Shown here in pieces: positions 489-40,739 of a stretch of 40,739 nt of DNA. The notes under the pieces were generated by a model. The model was not told where the DNA came from. It saw nothing but the letters and a program-made list of their open reading frames with translations, and did no database searches. The stretch is from Acinetobacter phage Petty. The DNA lies in sequence record KF669656.1, one strand, 5' to 3'. Within the stretch, counting starts at the first letter, position 1. Each line of letters opens with the position of its first letter. The translations under genes were made by a program, and so were the position numbers.

Positions 489-518
489 ATTCATTCTTAG
501 ATATTCTTATTTATTTAT

Positions 519-547
519 TCTATCAGTGTCCCTTCTAAATTTATTAT
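519..547 (-). promoter_or_regulatory. Inverted copy of the putative phage-RNAP promoter motif, oriented leftward toward the DTR
   Basis: The reverse complement of 515..545 reads aataaATTTAGAAGGGACACTgaTAGAATAA. It matches the + strand copies at 9791, 12922 and 19847, especially the 9791 copy (..GGGACACTacaTAGAATAA). Confidence 0.5.
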
Positions 548-696
548 TATTAATCAATAACTTATAAGACTCAGAATGTAATTATTTCGCCTTAAATGTA
601 ATTATATGTAATTACTATATAACTATATAAAACAATAACTTACTATTAAAAAATGTATCTCAATTGTAATCATTTAAAAATTTATTCATATTGTGC

Positions 697-724
697 TTGA
701 CATCCTGATTTTTTCAGGTAATAT
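697..724 (+). promoter_or_regulatory. Strong sigma70-type early promoter P1 (TTGACA-16-TAATAT)
   Basis: TTGACA at 697..702, 16-nt spacer, TAATAT at 719..724; A/T-rich UP-like sequence upstream. Confidence 0.7.
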
Positions 725-802
725 GAGCCTCGTACCAAGCGAATAACGCAACGGTATAGACTAGCTAGGGATGACCTACTTAGTAATTAATTAAAAATAT
801 GC

Positions 803-831
803 TTGACATCTAAACTATGAATCGTTATAGT
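803..831 (+). promoter_or_regulatory. Strong sigma70-type early promoter P2 (TTGACA-17-TATAGT)
   Basis: TTGACA at 803..808, 17-nt spacer, TATAGT at 826..831; upstream aaaaatatgc resembles P1 and P3. Confidence 0.7.
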
Positions 832-920
832 TGAGTTAAGTTTTAAATAACTGTACAAGTGCATGAGCCTAGCATTGTCTAAGGCAAGATTGACAAGGTA
901 CAAAATAATTTAAAAAGTAC

Positions 921-948
921 TTGACACTATCGAAAAACAGTGTAAAGT
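921..948 (+). promoter_or_regulatory. sigma70-type early promoter P3 (TTGACA-16-TAAAGT)
   Basis: TTGACA at 921..926, 16-nt spacer, TAAAGT at 943..948. A weaker fourth TTGACA at 889 has a poor -10. The three tandem promoters parallel T7 A1/A2/A3. Confidence 0.65.
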
Positions 949-4409: not shown

Positions 4410-4901
4410 ATGACTAAAGAAAATAAACAGCAGATCGTTATTAACCATAAGGTTGAGCAAGTTGTACGAGCCATTTACTTTGGCTTTGAGAAGGACAACC
4501 CTGCTGTGTTAAGCACTGGTGTAAACAAGGGAGCAGCCTTATCGTACTTCGACCCAATGGATAATGTGGTTATCGGTATTGCAGATGCGTATGGTATTCG
4601 CTTTAAACCTGAGAGTAACAGTGCTTTGATTGCATTAGGGTATCATCCAAGTGCTGTGTTGTTTGCATTGACACGTATGCGATTGAATGGTGAAGCTGTT
4701 GTACAGCGTGTCGGTGATGATCTTGTGGCTATCCATGCTGCTGTTGCTCAGCTTGCCCGTGATGTGGTATTCAATTGGGAAGTTCCTAAGTGTACAACGT
4801 CCCGTGTGACTAAGGAAACTAAGTTCAAGAAACCTATGCTTGAGAGTTACAAAACAGTACTACGTCTAAACAAAGGTATTAAGCCACCGTTGTTCGCTTA
4901 A
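4410..4901 (+). CDS. Hypothetical protein (163 aa)
   Basis: ATG at 4410 with GGAG RBS; ORF track 163 aa. Confidence 0.75.
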   Translation: MTKENKQQIVINHKVEQVVRAIYFGFEKDNPAVLSTGVNKGAALSYFDPMDNVVIGIADAYGIRFKPESNSALIALGYHPSAVLFALTRMRLNGEAVVQRVGDDLVAIHAAVAQLARDVVFNWEVPKCTTSRVTKETKFKKPMLESYKTVLRLNKGIKPPLFA

Positions 4902-9610: not shown

Positions 9611-9790
9611 TGTATTATTAGTTATGGTGCTGCTGGTTATTGCAGCACTCACTGTATTCGACAATGGAGATCGAGATTGAACGTCATCGTAGCATTAATA
9701 TTTGGTTAAGTCTGACATTGTAAAGTTATGTAAAAGAACCTTCATTTTACTTACATTCTGACCTTTGTAACTGGTTGATTTAATGTAAGT

Positions 9791-9817
9791 AATTTAGAAG
9801 GGACACTACATAGAATA
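9791..9817 (+). promoter_or_regulatory. Putative phage-RNAP promoter (AATTTAGAAGGGACACTacaTAGAATA) upstream of the DNA polymerase gene
   Basis: One of three + strand copies of the conserved 17-nt core AATTTAGAAGGGACACT, intergenic, 27 nt before the RBS of the gene at 9844. Confidence 0.6.
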
Positions 9818-9843
9818 AAAGCATAATCCGAAGGAGAGATTAA

Positions 9844-12189
9844 ATGGCTTGGCTAACGCTGGATTTAGAAGTACAGAACCATAAATGGTTTGGTTCAGTA
9901 GCTTCACCGCATTGCCCTGATAACTACATTGTTGCTACTGGTTGGGCTACAGATGCTAACCCTGTAGAACATGAGTACTTCGATACTAAAGAACAATCTT
10001 TAGAATCTGACTGGTTAGAACGTGCACTAGAGGGACAACGTATTCTAGTCGCTCATAATATTACGTTTGAATTACACTGGTTGTTTAAGTGTTATCCTAA
10101 AGTAATCTTCAATTGGTTAAACAATGGTGGACGTTTATTCTGTACACAGTTAGCAGAGTACCTACTTACTGAACAAACAGAACAGTATCCGAAGTTAGAG
10201 GATTGTTCTGTCAAGTACCGAGATCAAGGTGTAGATGAACATGATGTTCGTAAACTCGATGAGGTTAAGATTCTTTGGGAACAAGGTGTATTAACTGCGG
10301 ATATTGATAAGGAGTTACTACTTAGTTATCTATGTGATGATACTCATGGTGACGTAGCGAATACCCGACGTGTAGCTTTCAAGCAGTACGCCTTACTACA
10401 ATCTCGTGGTATGTGGAAGATGTTTCAGGCTCGTATGGACAGTGTGTTATTCAATGCTTTGGCAACGTACAATGGTTTGTATGTGAATCAGCCTGTAGCT
10501 CAACGTAACTTGAAAGCACAGCTAGAAGCAATTGAGAGCCTCACAGAGCGTATCTTGAATTACTTACCATCTGATCTACCAGATGAACTGGAGTTCTCTC
10601 TAACGAGCCAATACCATCGTTCTGCATTACTGTTTGGTGGGGCTATCAAGTACCGTAAGAAAGTATCTTACTCACCTAAGAAGTACGTAAAGACTGCTGC
10701 GTATGAGTTCACGTACCCTGAGAGTGGTGAGAAAGACTACTGCACCATTGATGAGTACAATGCTGGACACAAGTGGGCTACTCCCGAAACAGTTACACGC
10801 TATAAGTCTGGTAAGAACAAGGGGCAACCTAAAATATTCCAGATTGATTCCACTGAGGAACTTCTTAAGTGGGGTGATGGTACGTATGTATTCGATGGAT
10901 TGATTGACTTCAACGATCTACCAAGCCACGTAGCTGAACAGTACATTGGTAAACGTGCAGAGTTCAAAGGTAAGCGTGAGCTTGTATGTGGTTCACCTAT
11001 CTACAGTACTTCGGGTGATAGTCTGGATGTCCTTGCGAACTTCACAGATGTAGCTAAGCCAATTAAGGAACTGGCAACATTGCAGAAGGATACAGGCACG
11101 TACTATCTCATGGAGGATTCTAACGGTAAGGTTAGCGGTATGCTACAGTTCGTTGAACCTGATAGTATCATCCACCACCAACTGAATAGCTGCTCGACAA
11201 TTACTGGTCGCTTGTCATCAAGTAAACCGAACTTCCAGAACTTACCTCGTGCTGATGAAGATGAGGATGGGAACTTAAAATCCCGTGTGAAGGAAATGTT
11301 CACATCACGCTTTGGTGATCAAGGTCGTATCGTGGAGGTGGACTACAGTGCACTCGAAGTTGTGACACTGGCAACCATTTCTGGTGATAAGAACTTAATG
11401 CGAATGCTGAACGAAGGTATTGACATGCACTGTTATCGTTTAGCTGCTAAACTTGGAGAGGATTACGATGAAGTAAAACGTAAATGTAAAGATCAGTCAC
11501 ACCCAGAACATGCTCGTTATTCCGTAATGCGTACTGAGATTAAACCTCGTGCCTTCGCCCACCAGTACGGAGCTTCTGATGCTGGTATCTCTTACAGTAC
11601 AGGGTGTACATTGGAGGAGGCTAAGGAGTTCAAGCGTATTGAGTTTGAGCTATTCCCAGAGTCTAACGCCTACCCTAACGATATAGTTCGCCCAGAGGTT
11701 GAACGTCGTGGTAATGAAGGACTACCTCTCCGTGAATGCGTAGATGGTGTCTGGAGTATCTATCGACGTGGGTACTTCAAAGCGAAGTCTGGTACTTGTT
11801 ATTCTTTCCGACAGTACCCTAAACGTGTAGATGGTCAAATGATCATGGACTACAAGGATACCCAGATCGCTAACTACTGGTGTCAAGGTGAGGCATCATT
11901 CATTGTACAAGCTGCATGTGGTCGTGTAGCTCGTGAGTTCATCCATCGTAACTTCTTTGATGGGCAAGCACTACCAATCAACACAGTACACGATGCTATC
12001 TATCTTGACTGTGCCACTGAGGAGATCGCCATTGAAGCTGGACGTTTAGTTAGAGAGATCATGGAGAGCACACCTAAATGGCTTACAGAGGTTATCCCTG
12101 AGTTATTAGAGTGGAATTATCACATCACACCATTCCCTGCTGCTTGTGAACAGGGGGTAAATATGGCAAATAAAACCCACGTAGATTAA
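9844..12189 (+). CDS. DNA polymerase (family A, T7 gp5-like) with N-terminal 3'-5' exonuclease domain
   Basis: 781 aa. Pol motif A DYSALEVV, motif B K-x3-AFAHQYG, motif C VHDAIYLD; N-terminal exonuclease region (LDLEVQN). Strong GAAGGAGAG RBS. Confidence 0.9.
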   Translation: MAWLTLDLEVQNHKWFGSVASPHCPDNYIVATGWATDANPVEHEYFDTKEQSLESDWLERALEGQRILVAHNITFELHWLFKCYPKVIFNWLNNGGRLFCTQLAEYLLTEQTEQYPKLEDCSVKYRDQGVDEHDVRKLDEVKILWEQGVLTADIDKELLLSYLCDDTHGDVANTRRVAFKQYALLQSRGMWKMFQARMDSVLFNALATYNGLYVNQPVAQRNLKAQLEAIESLTERILNYLPSDLPDELEFSLTSQYHRSALLFGGAIKYRKKVSYSPKKYVKTAAYEFTYPESGEKDYCTIDEYNAGHKWATPETVTRYKSGKNKGQPKIFQIDSTEELLKWGDGTYVFDGLIDFNDLPSHVAEQYIGKRAEFKGKRELVCGSPIYSTSGDSLDVLANFTDVAKPIKELATLQKDTGTYYLMEDSNGKVSGMLQFVEPDSIIHHQLNSCSTITGRLSSSKPNFQNLPRADEDEDGNLKSRVKEMFTSRFGDQGRIVEVDYSALEVVTLATISGDKNLMRMLNEGIDMHCYRLAAKLGEDYDEVKRKCKDQSHPEHARYSVMRTEIKPRAFAHQYGASDAGISYSTGCTLEEAKEFKRIEFELFPESNAYPNDIVRPEVERRGNEGLPLRECVDGVWSIYRRGYFKAKSGTCYSFRQYPKRVDGQMIMDYKDTQIANYWCQGEASFIVQAACGRVAREFIHRNFFDGQALPINTVHDAIYLDCATEEIAIEAGRLVREIMESTPKWLTEVIPELLEWNYHITPFPAACEQGVNMANKTHVD

Positions 12190-12201
12190 TTAGGAGGTTA
12201 T

Positions 12202-12662
12202 ATGTCAGGCTGTATTAATTGGAACAAAGGGCTTGCTCATAATGGGTACGGTCTGACCACTCGCAACAATAAGACTTACAGAGCACATAGATTGGCGTAT
12301 TGTGATCATCATGGTGTATCACATGATAGTATCAAGGTAAGGTTGTACGCCATACTTGTGACAATCGTAAATGTGTAAATCCTGAGCATTTGGTATTAGG
12401 TACACATCAAGATAACATGGATGATATGAAGCACCGTGATCGTGCAGCCAAAGGTTTAAACAACGGAGCGTGTAAACTTACACCTGAACAAGTAAATTAC
12501 ATTAGAGCACACTATAAGCGTGGCTGTACTGAGTATGGTACAGTTGCGTTAGGTAAGAGATTTAATGTACATAACAGTACTATAGGTCGCTGTGTACGAG
12601 GCGACTACCATGCTGCTGCTGAACAAGGTGCAAGCATGGCATACAAGGAGCATATCGAATGA
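12202..12662 (+). pseudogene. HNH homing-type endonuclease disrupted by a frameshift
   Basis: Frame A 12202..12378 encodes MSGCINWNKGLAHNGYGLTTRNNKTYRAHRLAYCDHHGVSHDSIKV... then stops. Frame B 12330..12662 continues ..GKVVRHTCDNRKCVNPEHLVLGTHQDNMDDMK... Together they form a canonical HNH core; they join if one G is added in the aagg run near 12336. Confidence 0.7.
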
Positions 12663-12928
12663 CACCTGAACTAGCTTATGCTATGAAGGTACTGTACATC
12701 AAGGCATTGAGTCCACAACAGTACAGTAGCCTGCTTAGTATGTTCCAGCATCAAGGTGTACGGGAGGTAGTAGTTCAACTACCTTACCGCAGACCTGATA
12801 TTAGACGAGATAGTCCACTACCAAGTGCTGATCAACTTCATCATGTGCTCAGTTTAACGGTGGAGGACTTCTGGGACGCTATGGATTCTATTGACCATTT
12901 AGTATCAATTGTTCCTTCTAAAATTTAG
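12659..12928 (+). CDS. Hypothetical protein (89 aa)
   Basis: ATG at 12659 overlaps the TGA of the HNH frame (ATGA). The stop codon sits inside the palindrome CCTTCTAAAATTTAGAAGG. Confidence 0.65.
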   Translation: MTPELAYAMKVLYIKALSPQQYSSLLSMFQHQGVREVVVQLPYRRPDIRRDSPLPSADQLHHVLSLTVEDFWDAMDSIDHLVSIVPSKI

Positions 12929-12947
12929 AAGGGACACTTATAAGATA
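12922..12947 (+). promoter_or_regulatory. Putative phage-RNAP promoter (AATTTAGAAGGGACACTTATAAGATA)
   Basis: Identical over 26 nt to the copy at 19847..19872; intergenic, 36 nt upstream of the ATG at 12983. Confidence 0.65.
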
Positions 12948-12982
12948 GTAAACGTATTCACTCACTTTCAAGAGGTATTATT

Positions 12983-13852
12983 ATGAGCTTTTTAAATCAA
13001 CTTCAAAACATTGACGTAACTACTTTAGATGATATGACTGACGTAAAAGTTGGTGGTGAGTCACGAGGCTTACTCCCTACTGGTACAGCTTATGTACGTC
13101 CATGTATGTACATCGAGTACGGTTCACACGTACAAACATTCAACGGTGTGGCTAAGCCTGCTGCTCCAATCTTTAAACTTGGCTTCCGTATCGTTGGCGG
13201 TGGTGGTTTGAACCTTGAGGGTAAACCTGAGAAGTACGTCCTTGAAGAAGGTAAGTTCCCATTAATTACTACATTCGATACAACTTTAGGGTTCTATGAG
13301 AAGTCTAAATCTATTCAGTACTTCAACGCACTGAACCGTGTTGGCAACAAAGCAACTCACTTCGTACAGAAGATTGCTGAGCAATGTATCTACGCATTAC
13401 CTATTGGTGTGAAGAAGAACAAGCAAGGTAAGGACGTGCAAGATATTGACTTCACGAATCTACAAGTGGCTCTGAACCAAGAAACATTCGAGCAGCGTAC
13501 TGGTGACCCTACACTGTCTGATGAACATATCCAAGTGTTCTTATGGGATACACCTACTATCGAAATGTGGGACAGTATCTTCATCGAAGGTGAGTTCCCT
13601 GCACAGAAGGATGAGAGTGGCAAGATCACAAAGCCTGCCCGTTCACGTAACTTCCACCAAGAGAAATGCTTAAGTGCTCTGAACTTTGAAGGTTCACCAT
13701 TACAGTTACTTCTCCAAGAGAAAGGTAAGTCGTACACAATCCCAGAGTTACCTACAACTCCTGATGTACCAGAGGAAACACCTAATGAGCCTGATGCTGT
13801 GACACCGCCACCTACTGATGGTGCTGTGCTTACACCGCCAGACTTAGACTAA
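12983..13852 (+). CDS. Hypothetical protein (289 aa) with Pro/acidic C-terminal tail; candidate ssDNA-binding protein (inference only)
   Basis: AGAGG RBS; directly downstream of a phage-promoter copy and followed by a strong hairpin. C-terminus TPDVPEETPNEPDAVTPPPTDGAVLTPPDLD. No catalytic motif seen. Confidence 0.7.
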   Translation: MSFLNQLQNIDVTTLDDMTDVKVGGESRGLLPTGTAYVRPCMYIEYGSHVQTFNGVAKPAAPIFKLGFRIVGGGGLNLEGKPEKYVLEEGKFPLITTFDTTLGFYEKSKSIQYFNALNRVGNKATHFVQKIAEQCIYALPIGVKKNKQGKDVQDIDFTNLQVALNQETFEQRTGDPTLSDEHIQVFLWDTPTIEMWDSIFIEGEFPAQKDESGKITKPARSRNFHQEKCLSALNFEGSPLQLLLQEKGKSYTIPELPTTPDVPEETPNEPDAVTPPPTDGAVLTPPDLD

Positions 13853-13859
13853 GGTTAAC

Positions 13860-13895
13860 GGAGAGTACAACATCCTGTACTCTCCACTCTATTTC
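13860..13895 (+). terminator. Stable hairpin (GGAGAGTACA-6nt-TGTACTCTCC) with partial U tail: putative terminator or RNA-processing structure
   Basis: 10-bp perfect stem at 13860..13869 and 13876..13885, followed by ACTCTATTTC; lies 8 nt after the stop of the 289-aa gene. Confidence 0.45.
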
Positions 13896-13916
13896 AGATA
13901 ATACACAGGAGATCGT

Positions 13917-14027
13917 ATGTACACTCATATTCCAGAAGTAGCTTCACCAGCAAATTGTCCTAACTGTGGTTTAGTACCTACATACACAGGTGCTTGTCCT
14001 TATTGCGGAGAACGATTACATGATTAA
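13917..14027 (+). CDS. Small zinc-ribbon protein (36 aa, MYTHIPEVASPANCPNCGLVPTYTGACPYCGERLHD)
   Basis: ATG at 13917, 7 nt after AGGAG; two CxxC pairs (CPNCG...CPYCG) spaced 13 aa apart; its end overlaps the exonuclease start by 8 nt. Too short for the ORF track. Confidence 0.5.
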   Translation: MYTHIPEVASPANCPNCGLVPTYTGACPYCGERLHD

Positions 14028-14994
14028 CTTAGCTCATTTAGGCATCTCTCCTGAGATGTTGGCTAATACTAATCTCTATGTACCAAATGGTAGTGATGAT
14101 CGTGTGCTACTGTATGATGGTGATGGTGCATGTTATGTACACACTGCTGGTGTACGTAGATTAAGCACAGCACAAGACAGATTCGAGAAAGATATTCTCA
14201 CTATGATGTACTTAGCGAAGTGTTCTACAGCCCGTGTGCATTTAACACCTAAAGGATGCCGTAAGAACGATAGACACTTATTGCTAGGTGTTAATCCTTA
14301 CCAAGAGAACCGAAGTGGTACGAAGAAGCCAGACCTGTTAGAGCCATTGCGAGATAGTGCTCCACAGCATTTCGCAGATCATCCGACGATTAAGATTATC
14401 AGTCACTACGATATTGAGGCTGATGATGGTTTGATGATTGATCACTACAGTATGTCGAATGGTATCTTACTCTCAGCAGATAAGGATTTAACAATCAGTC
14501 CAAAGGAACAGTACTTCCCTGATGATGGTAGCTTCTTAATGCTGCCTAACGGTGATCGCTTTGGTTGGATTGCTCGTAAGGAATGGCTAACACCTTCTAA
14601 ACGACCTCAAGCTAAGTGTATTGGTAAAGGTACAAAGTTCTTCTTAGCACAAATGCTTATGGGTGACTCTGCTGATAACGTAAAAGGCATCTTAAAGCTC
14701 AATGGCAAGGTTTGTGGCTTTGCTGGTGCATTAGCCTATTTAGGTCACATTCAATGCGAACACGAGGCTGTGAACGCTGTTCTTGATGCCTACCGAGTTA
14801 TTGACCAGAACCCTATACCAGAGGCAGAGGCAATGTGGTTACTTCGTTATCGTGGTGATAACAGTTACAAGTACTTCACTGAGAACGAACTCACTACGGA
14901 GAACAAGCAGTTCTTAGACGATTGCTGGTTCAATCGTAAATGGAAGATGACGGAGGAAGAGTACTATGACCGACAAAAACACACTTCGGACTAA
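14020..14994 (+). CDS. 5'-3' exonuclease (T7 gp6 / FEN-like)
   Basis: ILLSADKDLTIS resembles T7 gp6 VIISCDKDFKTIP; N-terminal acidic DGDG region. ATG at 14020 preferred; the in-frame GTG at 13990 (ORF track) is possible. Confidence 0.8.
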   Translation: MINLAHLGISPEMLANTNLYVPNGSDDRVLLYDGDGACYVHTAGVRRLSTAQDRFEKDILTMMYLAKCSTARVHLTPKGCRKNDRHLLLGVNPYQENRSGTKKPDLLEPLRDSAPQHFADHPTIKIISHYDIEADDGLMIDHYSMSNGILLSADKDLTISPKEQYFPDDGSFLMLPNGDRFGWIARKEWLTPSKRPQAKCIGKGTKFFLAQMLMGDSADNVKGILKLNGKVCGFAGALAYLGHIQCEHEAVNAVLDAYRVIDQNPIPEAEAMWLLRYRGDNSYKYFTENELTTENKQFLDDCWFNRKWKMTEEEYYDRQKHTSD

Positions 14995-15433
14995 GCAGCT
15001 ACAACGGATTCCACGATCACAGTTACGTTCTGTTATGCTTCTTTTATATCAAAAGCAAGGTAATGTATGCGCTATTTGTGAGAAGCCTATTGATTTTAGT
15101 GTGACAGGGCATTCGGCTAACTATGCAGTCGATCACTGTCACCGCACTGGTGAGATTCGAGGTACGTTACACAAGTCTTGTAATAGTGCTGAGGGCAAGG
15201 TAGCTAATGCTGCTGGTCGTTGGGGTGCTAAGTCTACGGACTACGATGACATCATTGAGTTCTTAGATAAGTTAGTGATATACCTTAAGAAGTCCCGTAA
15301 TAAAGGTACAGGTCTTATGTACCCTGACCACAAAACCCCAGAACAAAAAGCAGAAGCCGATAAACTGAAACGTCGTAAAGCCTACGCAGCCAAGAAAGCT
15401 GCCGAAGCAGTATCTAAGAGGAAATCAAATTGA
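14966..15433 (+). CDS. Endonuclease VII (T4 gp49-like Holliday junction resolvase)
   Basis: CAICEKPIDFSVTGHSANYAVDHCHRTGEIRGTLHKSCNSAEGK aligns with T4 endo VII CLICQREL..NHLDHDHELNGPKAGKVRGLLCNLCNAAEGQ. GGAGGAAGA RBS; overlaps the exonuclease end by 29 nt, so a downstream start is possible. Confidence 0.85.
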   Translation: MTDKNTLRTKQLQRIPRSQLRSVMLLLYQKQGNVCAICEKPIDFSVTGHSANYAVDHCHRTGEIRGTLHKSCNSAEGKVANAAGRWGAKSTDYDDIIEFLDKLVIYLKKSRNKGTGLMYPDHKTPEQKAEADKLKRRKAYAAKKAAEAVSKRKSN

Positions 15434-16362
15434 GTATTAAATTCACACGCTTGAAACACTGGAAACAGACTGCACTTAAAATGTATCACTTGGAAGGTAA
15501 GAACTATACGGAAATTCACAAAGCATTGGGTGTACCGTATGACACTGTGTACGGTGCGTTACGTAAACTGAACGAGTACTTCGATGCAGACACCGTAAAG
15601 AGTAACATGCGTTTACCAACAATCTTCGTGATTGGTGATACACAGTGTAAGCAAGGTATTGATCTTGATTACATGAAGTGGATTGGTTATTACATTGCCC
15701 GTAAACGTCCTGATATTATTATTCATATCGGTGATCATTATGATATGGCTGCACTGTCGAGTTATGATAAAGCATCACTCAAGGCAGAAGGACGACGTAT
15801 CATTGAGGATATTCGTGCTGGTGATTTAGGCTTAGAGTACATTGAGAAAGAGATTGCCAAAGTACAAGGTTATAAACCTCGTAAGATCATCACACTAGGC
15901 AACCATGAAGAACGTATTGATCGCTTCGTTGGTCTTAACCCAGAGTTTGAGGGCTTCATGGGTACTGACCAGTTAGCCTTTGAGAAGTTCGGTTGGGAGG
16001 TTATTCCTTTCCTAACCCCTTGTGATGTAGAGGGTATTTCATTCCAGCACTATGTTCAGAACGTGATGACTGGTAAGCCTCTTGGTGGTACAGCATTGAA
16101 TATCTTAAAGTCCTCTGGTAAGTCATTCGTTATGGGTCATAAGCAAGTGCTTGATATTGCTATCAAACCTACTCTTGGTGGTGGACACCAGATCGGTATT
16201 GTGGTAGGTGCTTGTTACTTACATGATGAAGGTTATAAAGGTGTGCAGGGTAACAATCACTTTCGAGGATGTGTGATGCTTACCGAAGTACATAATGGAT
16301 ATGCACTACCAAGTCCTGTATCTTTGGATTACATGCGTAAAGTTTACGAAGCGAATCATTAA
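15430..16362 (+). CDS. Calcineurin-like metallophosphoesterase with N-terminal sigma70-region-4/LuxR-like HTH
   Basis: Phosphoesterase motifs VIGDTQ, HIGDHYD, GNHEER. N-terminal LKMYHLEGKNYTEIHKALGVPYDTVYGALRKL reads as an HTH. TTG start at 15430 (TTGA overlap with the upstream stop) is needed to include the HTH. Confidence 0.75.
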   Translation: MSIKFTRLKHWKQTALKMYHLEGKNYTEIHKALGVPYDTVYGALRKLNEYFDADTVKSNMRLPTIFVIGDTQCKQGIDLDYMKWIGYYIARKRPDIIIHIGDHYDMAALSSYDKASLKAEGRRIIEDIRAGDLGLEYIEKEIAKVQGYKPRKIITLGNHEERIDRFVGLNPEFEGFMGTDQLAFEKFGWEVIPFLTPCDVEGISFQHYVQNVMTGKPLGGTALNILKSSGKSFVMGHKQVLDIAIKPTLGGGHQIGIVVGACYLHDEGYKGVQGNNHFRGCVMLTEVHNGYALPSPVSLDYMRKVYEANH

Positions 16363-16371
16363 GGAGTCTGT

Positions 16372-17013
16372 ATGAAGATTGGTCTTATTGGATTAGCTGG
16401 TGCTGGTAAGGATACTGCTGCTGTTATTATGCAGCGTATCTTACAGGAGCAGACTGGCAAGTACTACAGTATCGAGCGTTATGCAAACTTGCTTAAGACG
16501 TGTGCTCGTAGAGTGTTTGGCGATAACTTTGATGATCGTGATGTGAAGGAAGTTAAGATACCTGTCACTAAAGAGTTACATGATCTTATGATTGCAGTTA
16601 CATCGTACTGCCAACGAGCGTTAGGGCTTCGTGATAAGGACATTGATCGTTGGCATAGCCTGTGCAATAAGCATCTTGGCAGTCTATCCGAAGTCAGTCC
16701 ACGACTGTTCCAACAACTGCTAGGTACAGAGGTAGGACGGGCTATTAATCCTGATGTGTGGGTAAACTACCTACACTCACAGGACTATGGCATGATCATT
16801 ACAGATTGTCGTTTCCCAAACGAATTAGTAGATAAGCGTATCTTAATTATTCGTCACGATGTACCTGAGAATATCCATAGCTCGGAGGAGTTTGCTGCAA
16901 AGCTACAGACTGATCATACAGCACGTTTAGGTGTCGTTGATTACGTTATTCACAACACAGGTACGATTGAAGAACTCGAAACACGTTTACGTTTCGCACT
17001 CACAACACTTTAG
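16372..17013 (+). CDS. dNMP kinase (P-loop)
   Basis: N-terminal Walker A MKIGLIGLAGAGKDT as in the T4 gp1 dNMP kinase; AAGGAG RBS. Confidence 0.75.
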   Translation: MKIGLIGLAGAGKDTAAVIMQRILQEQTGKYYSIERYANLLKTCARRVFGDNFDDRDVKEVKIPVTKELHDLMIAVTSYCQRALGLRDKDIDRWHSLCNKHLGSLSEVSPRLFQQLLGTEVGRAINPDVWVNYLHSQDYGMIITDCRFPNELVDKRILIIRHDVPENIHSSEEFAAKLQTDHTARLGVVDYVIHNTGTIEELETRLRFALTTL

Positions 17014-17021
17014 GAGTTCAA

Positions 17022-19493
17022 ATGCAAGACCTATATGAACGTCAGTTAGCGTTGGAGGAGGAGTACTCTAACGCAAGTTTAGCAGCAGGGCAACAGGTCG
17101 TATTAGATGCCTTTAAACAGGGTCGTGCTGCTGATATTAGTGCAGGGCGTGTCCTACTAGCCAAAGCCTTTGAAGCAGGCTTAGAACAGTTTACAGTGGC
17201 TCTAGCGAAGCCTTCTCGTGGGCTTGCTGGCAAGTACCGTAAATTATTACACTATGCACCTCCTGACGTTTTGGTAATGGCTGGTTTACGTGAAGTTATT
17301 AACGCATGTGCCAGTGCAGAACCAGTAAGTATGCAATACGTATTAACTCGTGTAGGACGTATTATCGAAGCTGAGTCTATGCTGGCTTGTATGCAACAAG
17401 TGAACGCACAGTACACTAATCGTACAGTACAGTACTTAGATTCAGCAGGCACAAAATCAATCACTCACCGTTACCGTACATTCTTGTCTGGTGCTCAGAA
17501 CATGGGTATGGATTGGGAGATATGGTCAAACACAGAACGTGTGCAAGTGGCTCGTATATTACTCACAGAGTTATATGAAGCTACAGGCTTGTTCAAGTGG
17601 GTGACACCTCAGTACAACTCATCACATACACAGTACTACCTAGAACCTTCTGAGGCTCTGGCTAAACACTTCCAAGATATTCAGAGTGCTGCTCGTGCTG
17701 TCATTAAGTATCCACCTATGCTCATTAAGCCTATGGATTGGGAAGGTTACATGAACGGTGGGTATCTAACTGAATGGTTTAGACACAATAGCCCTATGTG
17801 CTCACTTCGATATGTACGCCAGATTGATCGCAACTGGATTGTCAAAGGTCTATCAGATGAAGCTGCACAACCTGTACGTGATGCAATGAACAAAGCACAG
17901 AGTACAGCATATCGTGTTAATAAACAAGTACTTGAGGTACTGCGTAAAGCGACAGCAATGCGTGTGGGTATTTTAGGTTTACCGTCATTTGCTGAACTAC
18001 CTCAACCTGAATTTCCACTAGCAGATGGTTGGCAAAAGGATGATGCAACTGAATCTGAACTTGAGATTTTCCAACTATGGAAATCTCGTATGGCAGCTTG
18101 GTACACGGCTGAGAATAAACGCAAAGGTCGTCATACAGGCATTTTAATTAAGTTACGTGAACTCACACGATACAAGGACGAGGAGGCTCTGTACTTCCCA
18201 ACATTCATCGACTGGCGTGGTCGCCTGTACTTCCGTAGTGCATTGAATCCACAAGCCAATGATGCTGTGAAGGGGTGCTTAGAGTTCGCCAATGGCAAGC
18301 CTCTTGGTAAAGATGGTTTGTTCTGGTTGAAGGTACACGTAGCGAATTGCTGTGGTTATGATAAGCATGACCCTGAACTAAAGGCGAAATGGACTGATGA
18401 GAACTGGACACAAATTGAAGATTTTATCAATAACCCGTTGGACGTTGATGCCCCTGAACCAGACACAGCATTTACCTTATTACAGGCTGGTCTGGCACTT
18501 CAAGCTGCGCTATCGCTGGAGAATCCAGAAGCCTACGTATGCCATGTCCCAGTCGCTATGGATGCAACTTGTTCAGGTCTGCAACACCTCAGTGCGCTCA
18601 CTCGTGACCCAGTAGGTGCGTACTATACTAACCTGATTGATAACGGTACTGATAAAAAGTCCGATATTTATTTACGAGTAGCCAGTGTAGCAGACGAAAC
18701 GAAAGCAGACTTCTGTTTACGTAAGAAAACTATCAAAGGTAAAGTAGAGAACGTGGCTGACCTTGTACTAGAGCATTATTGGAAGGAACGTAGTATCAGT
18801 CGTAATATGGCTAAGAAGCCTGTAATGACTTTCGTGTACGGTAGCACGTTATTAAGTACCATCGAGAGTATCGCATTAGATATGTCAGAGGGAGGTATGC
18901 CCGTCATCGAAGAAGATGGTAAGGTCATCTACAGCCACACAGCACTTGCCACACCTATTGGTAAAGCACTTCGTCGTGGTGTCTTAGAAACTGTACCAGA
19001 AGCAGCTAAGATGATGAGTTACTTACAGAAAATTGTACGTAGCCACAAAGATCAATGTATGCGTTGGTTCACACCAGTAGGTGTTCCAGTAGTGAACTGG
19101 ACAGAAGGTACTACAGACAAACGTATTAATATCCGTTCTATGGGTGTTGAGAAAGTTCTGATGATCTTCCGTACAGGGGAGTACGATACTCGTCGTGCAG
19201 CTAATGGTATTGTACCTAACTTTGTACATAGTATGGACAGTGCTCACCTATGCGCTACAATCAATCATTTCGAGGGTGACGTACTACCTATCCACGATTC
19301 ATTTGCAACACACCCTAGCGACGTAAGTGCTTTACACACATCACTTAGAAGTACATTCGTAGAGTTATACCAGAACTTTAAGATCGAAGATTTCTTGGAG
19401 TTCAATAGTGTGGATTACGAAGAACACACACCACCACCTCAAGGTAACTTAGATTTATCTCATGTTATCAATTCCCGTTATATGTTTGGTTAA
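17022..19493 (+). CDS. Single-subunit DNA-dependent RNA polymerase (T7 RNAP family)
   Basis: 823 aa. DWRGRLYFRSALNPQANDAVKG matches T7 DWRGRVYAVSMFNPQGNDMTKG; catalytic motifs DATCSGLQHLSALTRD, PVMTFVYGS, IHDSFAT, NFVHSMD. Confidence 0.95.
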   Translation: MQDLYERQLALEEEYSNASLAAGQQVVLDAFKQGRAADISAGRVLLAKAFEAGLEQFTVALAKPSRGLAGKYRKLLHYAPPDVLVMAGLREVINACASAEPVSMQYVLTRVGRIIEAESMLACMQQVNAQYTNRTVQYLDSAGTKSITHRYRTFLSGAQNMGMDWEIWSNTERVQVARILLTELYEATGLFKWVTPQYNSSHTQYYLEPSEALAKHFQDIQSAARAVIKYPPMLIKPMDWEGYMNGGYLTEWFRHNSPMCSLRYVRQIDRNWIVKGLSDEAAQPVRDAMNKAQSTAYRVNKQVLEVLRKATAMRVGILGLPSFAELPQPEFPLADGWQKDDATESELEIFQLWKSRMAAWYTAENKRKGRHTGILIKLRELTRYKDEEALYFPTFIDWRGRLYFRSALNPQANDAVKGCLEFANGKPLGKDGLFWLKVHVANCCGYDKHDPELKAKWTDENWTQIEDFINNPLDVDAPEPDTAFTLLQAGLALQAALSLENPEAYVCHVPVAMDATCSGLQHLSALTRDPVGAYYTNLIDNGTDKKSDIYLRVASVADETKADFCLRKKTIKGKVENVADLVLEHYWKERSISRNMAKKPVMTFVYGSTLLSTIESIALDMSEGGMPVIEEDGKVIYSHTALATPIGKALRRGVLETVPEAAKMMSYLQKIVRSHKDQCMRWFTPVGVPVVNWTEGTTDKRINIRSMGVEKVLMIFRTGEYDTRRAANGIVPNFVHSMDSAHLCATINHFEGDVLPIHDSFATHPSDVSALHTSLRSTFVELYQNFKIEDFLEFNSVDYEEHTPPPQGNLDLSHVINSRYMFG

Positions 19494-19503
19494 GGAGTCT
19501 ATT

Positions 19504-19827
19504 ATGTTAATTTCAATTATTGTTCTTGCAATCCTAGTTGTTTCTGCTGTAGCTACAACTGTTTACCGTTCACCTAAGATTAAGGTAGCATGGGCAGAAT
19601 ACGTAGCCCTAGTTAAGTCTATGGGTACTAAGAATTTCTTAGCGGAGTGTAAGGACGATCTTAAGCACTCTTGGAACGTAACCCGTAAAGCATTTGGTAA
19701 CTTATGGCAAGCATTCAAATTAGTTGGCTTGTGGTTGAGTGTACCTTTCATTGTATTTATAGGTTTACCACTGGTTCTTTTATTGGTCTGTTTAGCATTA
19801 ACTTTCGTTCCCAACCGTCGTATCTAA
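19504..19827 (+). CDS. Small membrane protein (107 aa, TM helices at both ends)
   Basis: ATG at 19504 with AAGGAG RBS; N-terminal MLISIIVLAILVVSAVATTV and C-terminal LWLSVPFIVFIGLPLVLLLVCLALTF. Confidence 0.65.
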   Translation: MLISIIVLAILVVSAVATTVYRSPKIKVAWAEYVALVKSMGTKNFLAECKDDLKHSWNVTRKAFGNLWQAFKLVGLWLSVPFIVFIGLPLVLLLVCLALTFVPNRRI

Positions 19828-19846
19828 GTTATTGATTCTATATTAA

Positions 19847-19872
19847 AATTTAGAAGGGACACTTATAAGATA
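19847..19872 (+). promoter_or_regulatory. Putative phage-RNAP late promoter (AATTTAGAAGGGACACTTATAAGATA) ahead of the structural module
   Basis: Identical to the 12922 copy; intergenic; immediately followed by GGAG and the first structural-region gene. Confidence 0.65.
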
Positions 19873-19883
19873 GGAGATAAGAT

Positions 19884-20372: not shown

Positions 20373-20381
20373 GGAGGTGGT

Positions 20382-21932: not shown

Positions 21933-22829
21933 ATGACAACTTTTGCACAACAACCTCAACCACAAGCTCAACAACAAGTACAGCAAGTGCCTGCTGCTGG
22001 TTCACCATTGACACCTAACGCTGTCCCTGCTGGTATCCCACAAATCCCTGCTGGTGCTCAACTAGGTGGTGAGGGTTATGCTCAGAATCAAGCTGCTGCT
22101 GTGCCTCAGTATCAACAGCCTCAACCACAATTCCAAACACCTGTTCCACAGCAACCTGTAGTACCTGTAGTACCTGTAGCTCCTGTAGTTCCTAAACAAC
22201 AGCCTAATCCGTATCAAGCCCCTGCAATTGACCCTAACGCTAACTACATCGACACTTCAATTCAGTACTTAGCTTCTGAGTTAAATGTAAGCCCAGATGC
22301 TTTTGACGCAGTTCTGGATAAGGCTTTAGAGCATGGTGATATTAATTTAATTAACCCTGCTGCTATGGGTAACTTAACACCAGAACAGGCTCAACGTGTT
22401 ACGGCTTTAGCTACTGCTGCGTACCAACAAGTACAAGAGCAAGTACGATCAGCACAGAACACTGTGTATGAACTTGCTGGTGGTGAGGCTGCATGGAACA
22501 ATGCTATTCAAACATTTAACAGTACTGCTACTGAGCAAGAGAAGGCTTATGTAGAATACTTGATTGACCAAAAGGTTGATGCTCGTGCTGCTGGTGAGTA
22601 CGTTCTTAACGTACTACGCACCAGTGGTCGTACTAACAACATTGTACAAGCTCCTGTAGTGGGTGGCGTTGGTACAGTAACACACGGTTTATCTCGTGCA
22701 GAGTACATGGCTGAGGTCGCTAAGCTCGAACAAGAGATCGGCAACCGTTCATTCGATGACCCTATGTTCGCTGGACGTATGGCTGCACTTGATCAACGTC
22801 GTGCACTAGGTCGCCAACAAGGTCGTTAA
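21933..22829 (+). CDS. Scaffolding protein
   Basis: 298 aa, Gln/Pro/Ala-rich and low complexity; lies between the portal and capsid genes as T7 gp9 does. Confidence 0.8.
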   Translation: MTTFAQQPQPQAQQQVQQVPAAGSPLTPNAVPAGIPQIPAGAQLGGEGYAQNQAAAVPQYQQPQPQFQTPVPQQPVVPVVPVAPVVPKQQPNPYQAPAIDPNANYIDTSIQYLASELNVSPDAFDAVLDKALEHGDINLINPAAMGNLTPEQAQRVTALATAAYQQVQEQVRSAQNTVYELAGGEAAWNNAIQTFNSTATEQEKAYVEYLIDQKVDARAAGEYVLNVLRTSGRTNNIVQAPVVGGVGTVTHGLSRAEYMAEVAKLEQEIGNRSFDDPMFAGRMAALDQRRALGRQQGR

Positions 22830-23895: not shown

Positions 23896-23926
23896 TAGGC
23901 TACTCTCACGGGTAGCCTTTTTTTAG
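23896..23926 (+). terminator. Rho-independent terminator after the capsid gene
   Basis: AGGCTAC-tctcacgg-GTAGCCT stem-loop followed by TTTTTTT, 6 nt after the capsid stop. Confidence 0.8.
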
Positions 23927-30693: not shown

Positions 30694-33600
30694 ATGGTAG
30701 ACAATACTAAACCTGTGGCTATGCCTCTAGGACAACCAATCAAAGGTATTCCAGTAAACGTAGCACACGACCCAAACGTGCCTGTTTCAGAGCGATCTAC
30801 AGGTGAAGCTCCTGTTCTATCATTAGTTGAACCTTCTGAAACGCCTGCTCCTGTCCCTAAGACAGAGGCAGAGCAGGCACTTGATTTAAAGATTGAAGAA
30901 GAACGAGCATCTGTATTGGCATCTATTGGTGCTGGTATGGGTGGTCTAGGTATTGATATATACCGTAGTGCTCGTAGTGCATTAATCTATGAGCGTGACC
31001 CTAATTTTAATCACCAACCATTAAGTGATGAGTTCTTCACTCAGGCTGGTGCGGGTACGCCAGAGGAAGTTAAGTACTTGGCAGATGCTAAGAACGATGC
31101 TGACTTTGAAGATCGTACCAAGTATATTTTAGACAACCGTATGCGTCGTCAAGCTATGGCGGATAACCCTGTGTCTGGTCTTGTAGGTTCTTTAGTGGAC
31201 GTAGATATTGCTGTAGGTGGTGCTAAGATTCGTAATGTTGCTAATGCTGCTTCTACAGCAGGGCGTTTAGGTACTCGTGCTGGTGCTGGTGCTATTGGTG
31301 CTGGTGCTATGGTAGGTATCCAAGCTGCTCAAGGAGATAACACCTTACGCACAGAAGGTGAACAGTTAGGTGATGTATTCACTATGGGTATTTCCCGTTC
31401 ACTTGCTCCATTGGCTAAAGGGCAACCTCAAGTAATTGCTGGTGCTGGTGCACAAGGAGCACAAGGCGTTCCTACCACTGTACAACAGAGCGTAAACAGT
31501 GCTGCTAACCAAGTGCAACAACAGATTCAGACTTATACACCGCCAACAGGTACACCTACACAACAGGTTGCTAAGAACAAGTACATTGCTGCTTTACAAA
31601 GTACTGCTGATTACCTTCGTTATATTACTAATGGAGATACAACTACAGTAGTGAATAAGCTGTTAAGTAACCCAGCCTTCAACAATGGCGACGATGTTGT
31701 GAGTCTACAACAGGTGTACCTGAACAACTATGGGCAGCGTTTAAATGCGTTCTCCGATGCCTTCAAGGATGCTATCGCTGCTACTGGTACACGCAGTAAC
31801 CCTATTTCACGTATTACAGGACGGTATGCTCGTGCTGCGGAAGCTGTAGGGTCTGATTTCCAAGTAGCGTTACAACGTGTGGATGCAGATGTACTTGACT
31901 ACTACAAGACCAATGGTGTACTGCCTAATGATGTAGAGTTCAATAAGATGCTTGCTGCCCATAACAATGAGCCACATATTAACTCTTTGATTAAGGCTTA
32001 TATGGATTCTGGTATTGCTGAGAAAGCGTATGATGATATGCTGAGTTCTCCGTTGGCTATCCGAGAGGAGATCGACCCAGTTACAGGTAATACAATCCAA
32101 ACGAACATTATGGATGACATTGTACGTCGTCCTACGTATATGCGTTTACAGCATGATTATGACCGTATGGCACATACTGTAGAAGTTGCTAAGAAAGCTA
32201 CTTGGGATGAAATGGCTACGTTTATCGGTGACCAGATCACTAAGATGTATCCTGATCTATTAAATCCTAAAGGTGCTGGTAAGGCATTTAAACTCTCAGT
32301 TAAGCAAGTAGGTGATCACTATTTACAAACACAACGTCAAGCCTCTCGTGGTTTAAGTGACGTTTCTGCTGTGGGTATGAGTGTAGAGGATATGGCTAAG
32401 TTACTCACTGAGTCTGGTCAAGTTACTCAAAAGGAAGCTGTTAGCCTAGCATCTGAGATTTACAAACGCTCTCACGATAAAGGTACATCTATGCCTAAAC
32501 ACTTACGTAGACGTATTGATTGGGACTGGAATGCTACCATGCGTACTGCATCTGGTCATAAGTTAAGTATGCGTGACTTCGTGAACTCTAACGTGATGGG
32601 TAACTTAGAAGGTTATACCACGAGTCTTGGACACCGTTTAGGTCTTGCTGGTTATGGTCTTAAGAGTGAGGCTGACTTAGATAACCTATTAGAAAGTTAT
32701 TACTCTAAACTTCCTGCTGATGTGTCACCACAAGAAGCCAGACAGTTTATGAAGAACACTAAGGATACTTTGCTAGGTCGTCCTATTGAGAACAACCCTG
32801 TTCCAGAAGGTGTACGATCTGCACAAGCCGTTGCTGATATGTTCTTACTTGCTAACTCAGGTTTATTAGGTATGGTGGATGTAGCTTCTCAATTACAAAA
32901 AGTAGGTGTTATTCGTTCAATCCCTGCTATACGTAAAGGTTTAAAAGCTGTGTTCAAAAGCATGTCAAAAATAAGTAAGCAAGATGCTAAGGACTTAGAG
33001 GACATCTTAACATTACGTATGCTTCAAGGTTCTCAATGGAAGAACTTTGTACCACGTTATGCAGATAACTTCGAGGTATCTGGTGGTATCCATGAGGCTG
33101 CTCAGTACTATGGACAGAGTGCTCGTTTTATGAACTTATCAGAATCCCTAAAGCGTTTCCAAGTTGGTATCCTAGCTTCTGTGTACGCACGGAACTTGAA
33201 ACGTGCCATGAAAGGTGACGCTAAAGAGTTAGCCTTTATGAAGGATAAACTCAAGATAGACGGGACACTTATAAGAGAGATAGAACAAGAGTACGCTAAA
33301 CATGGTACAAACATTGATAATTGGAGTAATGCTGTACGGGTGAAGTACGAACAGAAGATTTACCACGATGCTGATAACTTAGCGATGTCTGTACATAACG
33401 GTGAAGTGCCTGCAATCCTAGAGCATTCTGCTGTAGGTCGTATCATCTTCCCGTACATGCGTTATACATTCGCTATGCAGAACAAGGTGCTTCGTAGAAC
33501 GTACAACCGTGATGGTGCTACAGGTTTAGCCATGTTACTTGCTTTCCAGATTCCTACTGCAATGCTGGTGGCAGCAGCAATTAACGTGCGTAAAGAAAAA

Positions 33601-33861
33601 GAACCTGACCATGACTTAGCTCTAGGAACTATCAAGAGTATGACGGCTTTCGGTTCATTGAACTACCCGTTTGAGATTGCTATGAGTGGTTTGGATGGGG
33701 GTGGTGTTACAGCGTTAGCCCCATTTGGTAAAACTTATAACTTCGGTAAGGAGTTATTCACTGGTGGCGAAGATGGTGAGGTGTCACCGTACAAACTCAT
33801 CAAGAACTCACCGATTAATGCTACACCATTAGATTATTTAGCTTTAGCTTTGGAGGATTAG
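30694..33861 (+). CDS. Internal virion protein C (gp16-like position, ejection-channel protein)
   Basis: 1055 aa; largest core protein, directly ahead of the tail fibre gene. No lytic-transglycosylase signature noted by eye. Confidence 0.65.
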   Translation: MVDNTKPVAMPLGQPIKGIPVNVAHDPNVPVSERSTGEAPVLSLVEPSETPAPVPKTEAEQALDLKIEEERASVLASIGAGMGGLGIDIYRSARSALIYERDPNFNHQPLSDEFFTQAGAGTPEEVKYLADAKNDADFEDRTKYILDNRMRRQAMADNPVSGLVGSLVDVDIAVGGAKIRNVANAASTAGRLGTRAGAGAIGAGAMVGIQAAQGDNTLRTEGEQLGDVFTMGISRSLAPLAKGQPQVIAGAGAQGAQGVPTTVQQSVNSAANQVQQQIQTYTPPTGTPTQQVAKNKYIAALQSTADYLRYITNGDTTTVVNKLLSNPAFNNGDDVVSLQQVYLNNYGQRLNAFSDAFKDAIAATGTRSNPISRITGRYARAAEAVGSDFQVALQRVDADVLDYYKTNGVLPNDVEFNKMLAAHNNEPHINSLIKAYMDSGIAEKAYDDMLSSPLAIREEIDPVTGNTIQTNIMDDIVRRPTYMRLQHDYDRMAHTVEVAKKATWDEMATFIGDQITKMYPDLLNPKGAGKAFKLSVKQVGDHYLQTQRQASRGLSDVSAVGMSVEDMAKLLTESGQVTQKEAVSLASEIYKRSHDKGTSMPKHLRRRIDWDWNATMRTASGHKLSMRDFVNSNVMGNLEGYTTSLGHRLGLAGYGLKSEADLDNLLESYYSKLPADVSPQEARQFMKNTKDTLLGRPIENNPVPEGVRSAQAVADMFLLANSGLLGMVDVASQLQKVGVIRSIPAIRKGLKAVFKSMSKISKQDAKDLEDILTLRMLQGSQWKNFVPRYADNFEVSGGIHEAAQYYGQSARFMNLSESLKRFQVGILASVYARNLKRAMKGDAKELAFMKDKLKIDGTLIREIEQEYAKHGTNIDNWSNAVRVKYEQKIYHDADNLAMSVHNGEVPAILEHSAVGRIIFPYMRYTFAMQNKVLRRTYNRDGATGLAMLLAFQIPTAMLVAAAINVRKEKEPDHDLALGTIKSMTAFGSLNYPFEIAMSGLDGGGVTALAPFGKTYNFGKELFTGGEDGEVSPYKLIKNSPINATPLDYLALALED

Positions 33862-36642: not shown

Positions 36643-36680
36643 CCCTGATCTTTAATTAGATCAGGGGGTTTTTTTTTTTA
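36643..36680 (+). terminator. Strong rho-independent terminator after the tailspike gene
   Basis: CCCTGATC-tttaatta-GATCAGGG followed by GG and T11. Confidence 0.85.
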
Positions 36681-39978: not shown

Positions 39979-40005
39979 TTCAATTAAATTCAACAGGAGA
40001 TTAAT

Positions 40006-40197
40006 ATGAGTTTACTAGATAAAGTTAAAGCTGTCCGTGTACAAGATGCTGAGCAAGTACTAAGTACCGCTAAAATCGTCGTACAGAGCGCACAGGCGTT
40101 AAATAGCACTGGCACGTACAAACATAAGGAGAAGGTCGATAAAGCTCTGTATGGAGCATCTGTGACTCTCTCAGTGCTAGAGCGAGTGCTACGATGA
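40006..40197 (+). CDS. Hypothetical protein (63 aa)
   Basis: ATG at 40006 with CAGGAGA RBS; right-end small gene. Confidence 0.65.
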   Translation: MSLLDKVKAVRVQDAEQVLSTAKIVVQSAQALNSTGTYKHKEKVDKALYGASVTLSVLERVLR

Positions 40198-40364
40198 GTT
40201 ATAGTCCTAGAGTTAAAGTAGAAGTTCAACGTGAGGTTCACGAAGCCTTACGTGAGCTTAAGCAAAGAGGAGAATCTTTCAATGATGTGATTGCACGTTT
40301 ACTGGAATCCCAGAAGTGTGTTCAGGAGTGTATTCAGAAGTGTTCAGGTAATTGTTCAGAGTAG
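40194..40364 (+). CDS. Small ribbon-helix-helix-like protein (56 aa)
   Basis: ATG overlaps the upstream stop (ATGA). The N-terminus SYSPRVKVEVQREVHEALRELKQRGESFNDVIARLLE has the RHH beta-strand, helix, G-x-S turn and second helix. The Cys-rich C-terminal third overlaps the GTTCAG repeat array. Confidence 0.45.
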   Translation: MSYSPRVKVEVQREVHEALRELKQRGESFNDVIARLLESQKCVQECIQKCSGNCSE

Positions 40365-40391: not shown

Positions 40392-40739
40392 GATTCCTCT
40401 TGGGAGTACTATGTCACAACCTAAAATTTGGTATAGTTTTCTGAGAGGGTATCCCCACCCTGCGCCGTCCAGCCTTCCCCCATAGGGTTCTTGCTTAGGA
40501 TGACTTAGTCTATGATCAAGACTTTATAGTATCCTAAGCTATTTATTATCAAGACTGTTTCATCTTTTAATCTCCTTTCGTGGTAACTGATTGCAAGTTT
40601 ATACAGTCCTTTCGATAGTGTCAAGCATTTATTGATAAATTTATTCAACTATTTTTTAAATCGGGTACTAAGTCTATGATTATCAATAGATTATAGTTAT
40701 ATCTTTATAGATTTATATATAGATTTATAGGTTTATAGG

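Follow-up and report, generated by a model that had tools for sequence, protein, structure and literature searches.

The promoters closest to the motif described here belong to single-subunit RNA polymerases (RNAPs) of the Acinetobacter phages AS11 and AS12 (Friunavirus, Beijerinckvirinae). In these phages, no other intergenic motif was over-represented, confirmation of the promoter by primer extension with RNA of infected cells was reported, and the predicted promoters all pointed rightward (Popova et al. 2017, Viruses 9:188, PMC5537680). In the AS12 record, the sequence TTGAAGTTACACTTATAGAA is annotated as 'phage RNA polymerase promoter' three times: at 10105, ahead of the DNA polymerase gene, and in tandem at 20377 and 20412, between the terminator of the RNAP gene and the structural genes (KY268295). 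A second point of reference is the Pseudomonas phage LUZ19, of another subfamily (Krylovirinae); by ONT-cappable-seq, a phage-specific promoter in antisense, P001, was mapped to its left end, and the transcripts reach right-end genes (Putzeys et al. 2024, microLife, PMC10914365). An antisense motif matching P001 was found in 15 other Phikmvvirus species, and the authors suggested that the promoter blocks read-through into the early genes (PMC10914365). Here we describe a repeated motif of roughly 20 nucleotides (nt) in Acinetobacter phage Petty (KF669656.1), the 40,739 bases of which form a complete linear phage genome and are hereafter called the window.

The motif is very probably a promoter read by the phage's own single-subunit, T7-type RNAP, encoded at 17022-19493. 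An earlier note on this DNA had proposed the same, and the proposal is now backed by homology and synteny with the AS11/AS12 promoters as well as by co-variation with the specificity loop of the polymerase, all of this being comparative evidence. Almost certainly, the motif is an ordinary feature of T7-like phages, namely a variant, in sequence, of promoters previously mapped in related Acinetobacter phages, and the general view of T7-like transcription is unaltered. The five copies in the window are as follows, with scores from a weight matrix trained on the same five sites that it scored.

516..541, minus strand: putative leftward promoter copy (AATTTAGAAGGGACACTGATAGAATA), 17-mer at 541-525, score 40, predicted +1 at G520 or A519
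9791..9816, plus strand: putative promoter copy before the DNA polymerase gene (AATTTAGAAGGGACACTACATAGAAT), exact 17-mer, score 34, predicted +1 at G9813
12922..12947, plus strand: putative promoter copy before a gene for a 289-amino-acid (aa) protein, exact 17-mer, predicted +1 at G12944
19847..19872, plus strand: putative promoter copy after the RNAP gene and a 121-aa open reading frame (ORF), heading the structural block, predicted +1 at G19869, with the ribosome-binding site (RBS) GGAG directly after
33253..33278, plus strand: degenerate promoter-like copy in an internal-virion-protein gene, score 39 (self-trained), predicted +1 at G33275

The motif is repeated far above chance. The 17-mer AATTTAGAAGGGACACT occurs exactly at four sites, 9791, 12922 and 19847 on the plus strand and 541-525 on the minus strand; the three plus-strand sites and the identity of their 17-nt core had been recognised previously, albeit the antisense copy and the intragenic one at 33253 were overlooked. 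Allowing up to three mismatches, we obtained six matches to the 17-mer against 0.14 expected from shuffles. The fifth copy (AAGATAGACGGGACACTTATAAGAGA) is degenerate and agrees with the 30-mer shared by the 12922 and 19847 copies at 23 of 30 positions. In the whole-genome weight-matrix scan that the earlier note had called for, carried out on both strands, these five sites scored 34-45 and the next best no higher than 8. The former description of an almost invariant 26-mer at three sites proved too generous: the 12922 and 19847 copies are identical, in fact over 30 nt (12919-12948 equals 19844-19873), but the 9791 copy (…CACTACATAGAAT) departs after position 17 and differs at six of the last nine positions of the 26-mer. 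A 26-mer search with three mismatches misses that copy. In public collections the exact 17-mer gave single chance matches in two viral contigs and 26 genome contigs, none of them multi-copy or in a related phage.

All four copies within the gene-bearing part of the genome lie on the plus strand, in the direction of the genes, and three stand directly before an RBS and a start codon. The spacing from the start of the motif to the RBS is about 40, 48 and 25 nt at 9791, 12922 and 19847, respectively, rather than a uniform 30-40 nt as had been thought. Nor is every copy intergenic: this description suits the 9791 and 19847 copies, but the 12922 copy extends over the 3'-terminal 7 nt of ORF 12659-12928, its TAG stop codon among them.

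The core of the Petty motif (TTTAGAAGGGACACTTATAAGA) is homologous to that of AS11/AS12 (TTGAAGTTACACTTATAGAA). The two align as ATTT-GAAG..ACACTTATA with a local score of 13 and one 1-nt gap (shuffle p = 0.0005), and they occupy the same syntenic positions in genomes of the same gene order. The 9791 site corresponds to the AS12 promoter at 10105 ahead of its DNA polymerase, and the 19847 site, in the gap between the RNAP and structural genes, corresponds to the AS12 pair at 20377 and 20412 and to a site at 22508 in phage Acibel007. We also found an unannotated leftward copy in AS12 at 580-563. The systems differ in several respects. The central specificity positions read GGGA in Petty and GTTA in AS11/AS12, and the block ahead of CAC has one additional nt. 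In front of its structural genes Petty has one promoter-like site in place of the tandem pair of AS12, and no hairpin terminator follows its RNAP gene. Two further sites set Petty apart, one upstream of the 289-aa gene and one within the gene that comes before the tail-fibre gene. The two polymerases are 64% identical, but their specificity loops only 31%. On the AS12 side (L008 in our set), the promoter before the DNA polymerase gene is followed at 10125-10237 by about 115 nt of extremely A/T-rich non-coding DNA, an arrangement that resembles the layout of the T7 primary origin; Petty has no such tract, only a 31-nt leader.

Aligned with T7 gene 1, the Petty RNAP shows 29% identity and unchanged catalytic motifs, and PF00940 and PF14700 are present in its homologues. 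An exact look-up of the Petty RNAP sequence gave no record. Its closest GenBank relatives come from Acinetobacter phages of the subfamily Beijerinckvirinae, with amino acid identities of 66% for Acibel007 and, in that search, about 62% for Friunavirus; DNA similarity to these phages is about 72% and limited to parts of the RNAP gene. Public read assemblies supplied one relative at 97% RNAP identity (L038) and many at 60-70%. An RNAP-based locus search of viral and metagenome contigs returned relatives at 29-39% identity only, which were not used. A relative of about 65% polymerase identity (P0026/P0145) carries the NCBI name 'Vibrio phage vB_VhaP_VH-5', so that kinship by itself would not establish Acinetobacter as the host of Petty. 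A crude 16-mer seed search missed the motifs of Acibel007, Aristophanes and L039, and reading of the intergenic regions together with exact 11-mer repeat counts recovered them. The core motifs of the lineages compared are:

Petty (the window): AATTTAGAAGGGACACTTATAAG
Acibel007: ATTAGAAGATAGACGTATAAGATAG
L039 (69% RNAP identity): TATTTAAGAGTTGCACGTATAAG, also before the homologue of the 289-aa gene
L047 (67% RNAP identity): TTGAGTGGTACACTTATAAG, also before the homologue of the 289-aa gene
Aristophanes: TTTTAATAATCATGCGTATT
AS12 and APK77: TTGAAGTTACACTTATAGAA (in AS12, annotated and validated)

In L039 and L047, the copy ahead of the 289-aa gene homologue is at 4595 and 5337, respectively. We aligned the polymerases to T7 RNAP, in which the specificity loop, residues 739-770, is the part that reads promoter positions -12 to -7; this segment corresponds to aa 693-722 of the Petty enzyme (nt 19098-19187). 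Between Petty and the lineages with different cores, identity falls from 64-69% over the whole proteins to 31-52% in the loop. In L038, the promoter of which equals that of Petty, the loop is 100% identical, and the 40-nt promoter region at the equivalent of 19847 is also identical, though the adjoining upstream ORF shows divergence. Between AS12 and APK77, neither the loop nor the promoter differs. The comparison is qualitative and spans six lineages. This co-variation of core and loop is the pattern expected if the Petty RNAP reads the motif.

The motif had been called unrelated to the T7, T3 and SP6 consensus sequences. For comparison, we used the 23-nt consensus sequences of the T7 group (-17 to +6). 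Shuffled alignments gave no significant similarity to T7 or T3, in line with the former view, but the view fails for SP6 (ATTTAGGTGACACTATAGAAG): the gapped alignment ATTTAG..G.GACACT.ATA.AAGA (written out, ATTTAG--GTGACACT-ATAGAAGA) has a local score of 12, which none of 2000 shuffles reached. For K11 the shuffle p was 0.02. Common descent of the Petty and SP6 promoter sequences is plausible, and no more than plausible because the alignment needs gaps. In general build the motif is like the T7 group: its 5' part is A/T-rich, a specificity block and CACT come next, and a TATA-like melting region leads to a purine start; the polymerase, too, is of the same fold family. It differs in that the conserved region reaches about -22 and many copies add an element at -45, and in that the RNAP gene stands late in the replication block, not early.

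To place the start sites, we anchored the sites on the shared upstream element; the G of the TATAG in AS12 then aligns with the G at motif position 23. The register with T7 and SP6 was used as well. T7-type enzymes favour a G start following a TATA-like melted segment, and for this reason transcription most likely starts, within about one base, at the G of position 23: 9813, 12944, 19869 and 33275, and G520 or A519 for the leftward copy. The predicted leaders are 31, 39 and 15 nt for 9791, 12922 and 19847, respectively.

Several points weigh against the promoter interpretation or limit it. All functional statements on the Petty promoters, those on relative strength included, rest on comparison. 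The 33253 copy is intragenic, has three core mismatches and is missing from more distant lineages. The 9791 copy diverges around the presumed start, which leaves its strength and exact +1 uncertain, and it overlaps a weak sigma-70-like match, GGGACA-16-CATAAT (9800-9827, 9 of 12 positions). The alignments to SP6, K11 and AS12 require gaps of 1-2 nt between the conserved blocks, so that the register of the start site had to be deduced. The AS11/AS12 start sites from primer extension are given in a figure only, not in the text or supplement (PMC5537680).

Alternatively, the copies could be operators or iterons for a phage DNA-binding protein, such as a replication initiator or a repressor. The left-end and DNA-polymerase copies indeed share about 60 nt of extended similarity, the left-end copy adjoins short tandem repeats and an A/T-rich tract, as is often the case at origins, and a lineage-independent upstream element stands beside many copies. 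Nevertheless, the fixed orientation to genes just upstream of an RBS, the 5' ends mapped at the homologous AS11/AS12 sites and the co-variation of the core with the polymerase specificity loop make such a role in place of promoter function very unlikely. T7 promoters are themselves part of replication origins; an origin role would therefore add to promoter function, not replace it. The overlap of the 9791 copy with a weak sigma-70-like match raises the thought that the motif serves the host RNAP, with sigma-70 or an alternative or phage-modified sigma factor. We regard this as highly improbable: the blocks TTTAGA and TATAAG stand 9 nt apart with no common -35/-10 pair at 16-18 nt, no sigma-70 match is listed at 12922, 19847, 33253 or 541, and the strong sigma-70 promoters, which are grouped at 697-948, have a clearly different appearance. 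Moreover, the motif differs among lineages infecting the same host genus and follows the polymerase loop.

Two copies identical over 30 nt might also be expected of non-functional repeats left by recent duplication or gene conversion, or of footprints of small mobile elements, the more so as HNH homing endonuclease genes are common in this phage group. Such a neutral origin is exceedingly improbable, as the same three to four syntenic positions hold the motif in lineages with 64-69% polymerase identity, and as the motif is unchanged in the 97% relative, where the adjacent ORF has diverged. Furthermore, the motif varies between lineages while it is uniform inside each genome, which points to selection for a common reader, not to drift. 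Finally, the element could act as RNA, either as a processing site or as a 5' or 3' stabiliser, since a 12-bp palindrome, one half of which is formed by the 12922 copy, folds into an RNA hairpin (-15.6 kcal/mol, z = -3.8). The 12922 copy is, however, the sole palindromic one, the others lacking a hairpin partner; no Rfam match was found, and one copy is on the non-coding strand of a stretch that has no genes. An RNA element consequently seems highly improbable. The palindrome itself (TGTTCCTTCTAAA/ATTTAGAAGGGACA, 12910-12936) is made up of the 3' end of ORF 12659-12928 and the first half of the putative 12922 promoter, and it is absent from the equivalent L039 site.

If the copies are promoters of the phage RNAP, transcription of Petty could proceed as follows. 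The host RNAP would act first, transcribing the left end from three sigma-70-type promoters (about 700-950) and reading through to the phage RNAP gene. The phage RNAP would then bind a roughly 22-nt duplex element, AATTTAGAAGGGACACT(N)ATA(A), and melt its A/T-rich 3' part. The unit from 9791 would cover the DNA polymerase gene onward, and that from 12922 the 289-aa gene, exonuclease, endonuclease VII, kinase and the RNAP gene itself, so that the phage RNAP probably amplifies its own gene in a positive feedback. The unit from 19847 would supply the structural genes, with 33253 as a probable booster for the tail-fibre gene. From 541-516, a non-coding leftward transcript would run across the short repeats and the 308-bp terminal repeat and, on concatemers, on into the right-end genes in antisense. 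This scheme gives a predicted transcription map for a phage lineage whose nearest GenBank relative has just 66% polymerase identity, and adds a new pair of polymerase and promoter specificities. The cores GGGACAC, GTTGCAC, GATAGAC, GTTACAC and ATCATGC would be a natural series for the study of the specificity loop or for orthogonal expression systems.

Many of the sites carry a further element upstream. The sequence TAAnnnnYTGATW stands at a fixed -45/-44 from the predicted start. Of 24 promoter sites in seven genomes, 11 have it without a mismatch, where 0.04 would be expected. In Petty it was found at three places:

552..564, minus strand: upstream element TAAGTTATTGATT, at -45 of the putative leftward promoter, within the 60-nt similarity 525-584 / 9748-9807
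9768..9780, plus strand: upstream element TAACTGGTTGATT, at -45 of the putative DNA polymerase promoter
19825..19837, plus strand: upstream element TAAGTTATTGATT, at -44 of the putative structural-block promoter

The element is independent of lineage and was seen also in L007, L008, L039, L042, L043 and L047. The 12922 and 33253 copies lack it, as do tandem second or minimal promoters and the lineages L048 and L050. TAAnnnnYTGATW is the exact reverse complement of the consensus of integration host factor (IHF), WATCARNNNNTTR. It is tempting, albeit rather unlikely, that most promoters of this group are bipartite, with a lineage-specific core for the RNAP and a lineage-independent -45/-44 element bound by a host DNA-bending protein or a conserved phage factor. 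If this were true, the single-subunit phage RNAP promoters of the subfamily would be factor-assisted; such assistance is not known for T7-type promoters. The element might also mark replication or packaging functions, because the extended class includes the leftward and the DNA-polymerase promoters.

The leftward copy at 541-516 belongs to the non-coding left end, where it is flanked by the terminal repeat and its short repeats on one side and by the early promoters at 697, 803 and 921 on the other. Leftward copies, each with the core of its own lineage, are also present in AS12 (580-563), APK77 (about 665-646), Acibel007 (about 545-517) and Aristophanes (about 533-520). The copy in AS12 appears to have been overlooked, as the AS11/AS12 paper states that all promoters are rightward. 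By analogy with LUZ19, the Petty copy would not be new in kind. In LUZ19 and phiKMV, too, a single motif of roughly 20 nt recurs just four to five times; copies follow the RNAP gene and occur in the structural region, one is reversed at the left (early) end, and this layout is conserved across the genus. The Petty motif has no sequence similarity to the LUZ19 motif GgtTATGTCACacACAnnGG (p = 0.66), however, and no promoter has been reported before the DNA polymerase gene of LUZ19; the two are analogues in layout, not homologues. The antisense left-end promoter of Pseudomonas phiKMV-like phages would also extend to the Acinetobacter-phage subfamily Beijerinckvirinae.

No credible minus-strand gene was found downstream of the leftward promoter, and its transcript would be non-coding. 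An 83-aa minus-strand ORF at 39990-40241 was considered as its gene and rejected: it belongs to no family, and the overlapping plus-strand ORF 40006-40197 matches phrog_6687 (1e-28). The first 200 nt of the predicted leftward transcript are purine-rich (68-74%) and A/T-rich, and our scan listed no minus-strand terminator candidate from 520 to 1. The T7 class II pause signal ATCTGTT occurs in the genome at chance frequency and is absent from the terminal-repeat region, so that a T7-type pause site at the concatemer junction cannot be claimed. Conceivably, the leftward transcript might help to prime replication or to process the terminal repeat.

Short tandem repeats (TTTATAGG/TTTATAGA units) run across the inner edge of the terminal repeat at 269-312, and between the terminal repeat and the leftward promoter, at 383-450 and 470-490, there are four to five copies of TCTCTAATCATTC and a long T run of about 16-20 bases. 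These left-end repeats resemble the short-repeat zones beside the T7 terminal repeats. Beyond the core and the -45 element, the left-end and DNA-polymerase sites are similar over about 60 nt (525-584, minus strand, against 9748-9807, plus strand; 77%), a resemblance also visible in Acibel007, AS12 and Aristophanes.

The intragenic copy at 33253 is a probable promoter, albeit the least certain of the five. It lies about 600 nt before the tail-fibre gene at 33863. The site is 100% conserved in L044 and L045, in which the protein is 92-94% identical, despite a nucleotide divergence of about 6%; by our own Poisson estimate the conservation has roughly p = 0.03 and lends modest support. The site is absent in L046 (60% identity). 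A promoter in the structural region has also been reported for LUZ19 and KP34.

The wider setting of these sites is that of a phiKMV/Fri1-like genome, with the RNAP gene just ahead of the structural genes. The ends are direct terminal repeats of 308 bp (1-308 and 40432-40739, identical at 308 of 308 positions), and credible genes are exclusively on the plus strand. Scans of the whole stretch for Rfam families and tRNAs gave no matches. The host-type early promoters, genes and terminator candidates are:

697, plus strand: sigma-70-type early promoter TTGACA-16-TAATAT (consensus match only)
803, plus strand: sigma-70-type early promoter TTGACA-17-TATAGT (consensus match only)
921, plus strand: sigma-70-type early promoter TTGACA-16-TAAAGT (consensus match only)
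7321, plus strand: helicase
8648, plus strand: ligase
9844-12189, plus strand: DNA polymerase, ATG at 9844
12659-12928, plus strand: ORF ending in TAG, overlapped by the 12922 copy
12983-13852, plus strand: 289-aa gene, phrog_862
after the 289-aa gene and before the RNAP gene, plus strand: exonuclease, endonuclease (endonuclease VII), phosphoesterase and kinase
17022-19493, plus strand: single-subunit (T7-type) RNAP, 823 aa, phrog_414 (E = 2e-252)
19462-19827, plus strand: 121-aa ORF without family match
after the RNAP gene, plus strand: portal, scaffold, capsid, tail tube, internal virion proteins, tail fibre, lysis genes and terminase
23897..23918, plus strand: terminator candidate (hairpin and T run) after the major capsid gene; AS12 has an annotated terminator at the same place
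30694-33861, plus strand: internal-virion-protein gene, 1055 aa
33863 (start), plus strand: tail-fibre gene
36643..36666, plus strand: terminator candidate (hairpin and T run) after the tail-fibre gene

Between the 12922 promoter and the RNAP gene the sole hairpin candidate, at 13860-13885, is poor in its T run. No terminator candidate is listed between the RNAP gene and the 19847 promoter (19493-19846), the 121-aa ORF standing there instead; AS12 and Acibel007 have a strong hairpin terminator directly 3' of the RNAP gene. The three early sigma-70-type promoters span 697..948, and their placement parallels that of the annotated -35/-10 signals of Acibel007. The terminal repeat also holds a minus-strand sigma-70-like site, TTGACA-17-TAAACT, at 165-193 and again at 40596-40624, which is a 33-nt inverted copy (79%) of 903-935 on the plus strand, around the early promoter at 921. 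Lastly, 1864-1910 and 2113-2159 are 47-nt direct repeats, 81% identical and each with a hairpin (CATGAGTGCGCTGCGCTCATG), that follow early genes next to each other and may serve the early region as terminators or as processing sites.

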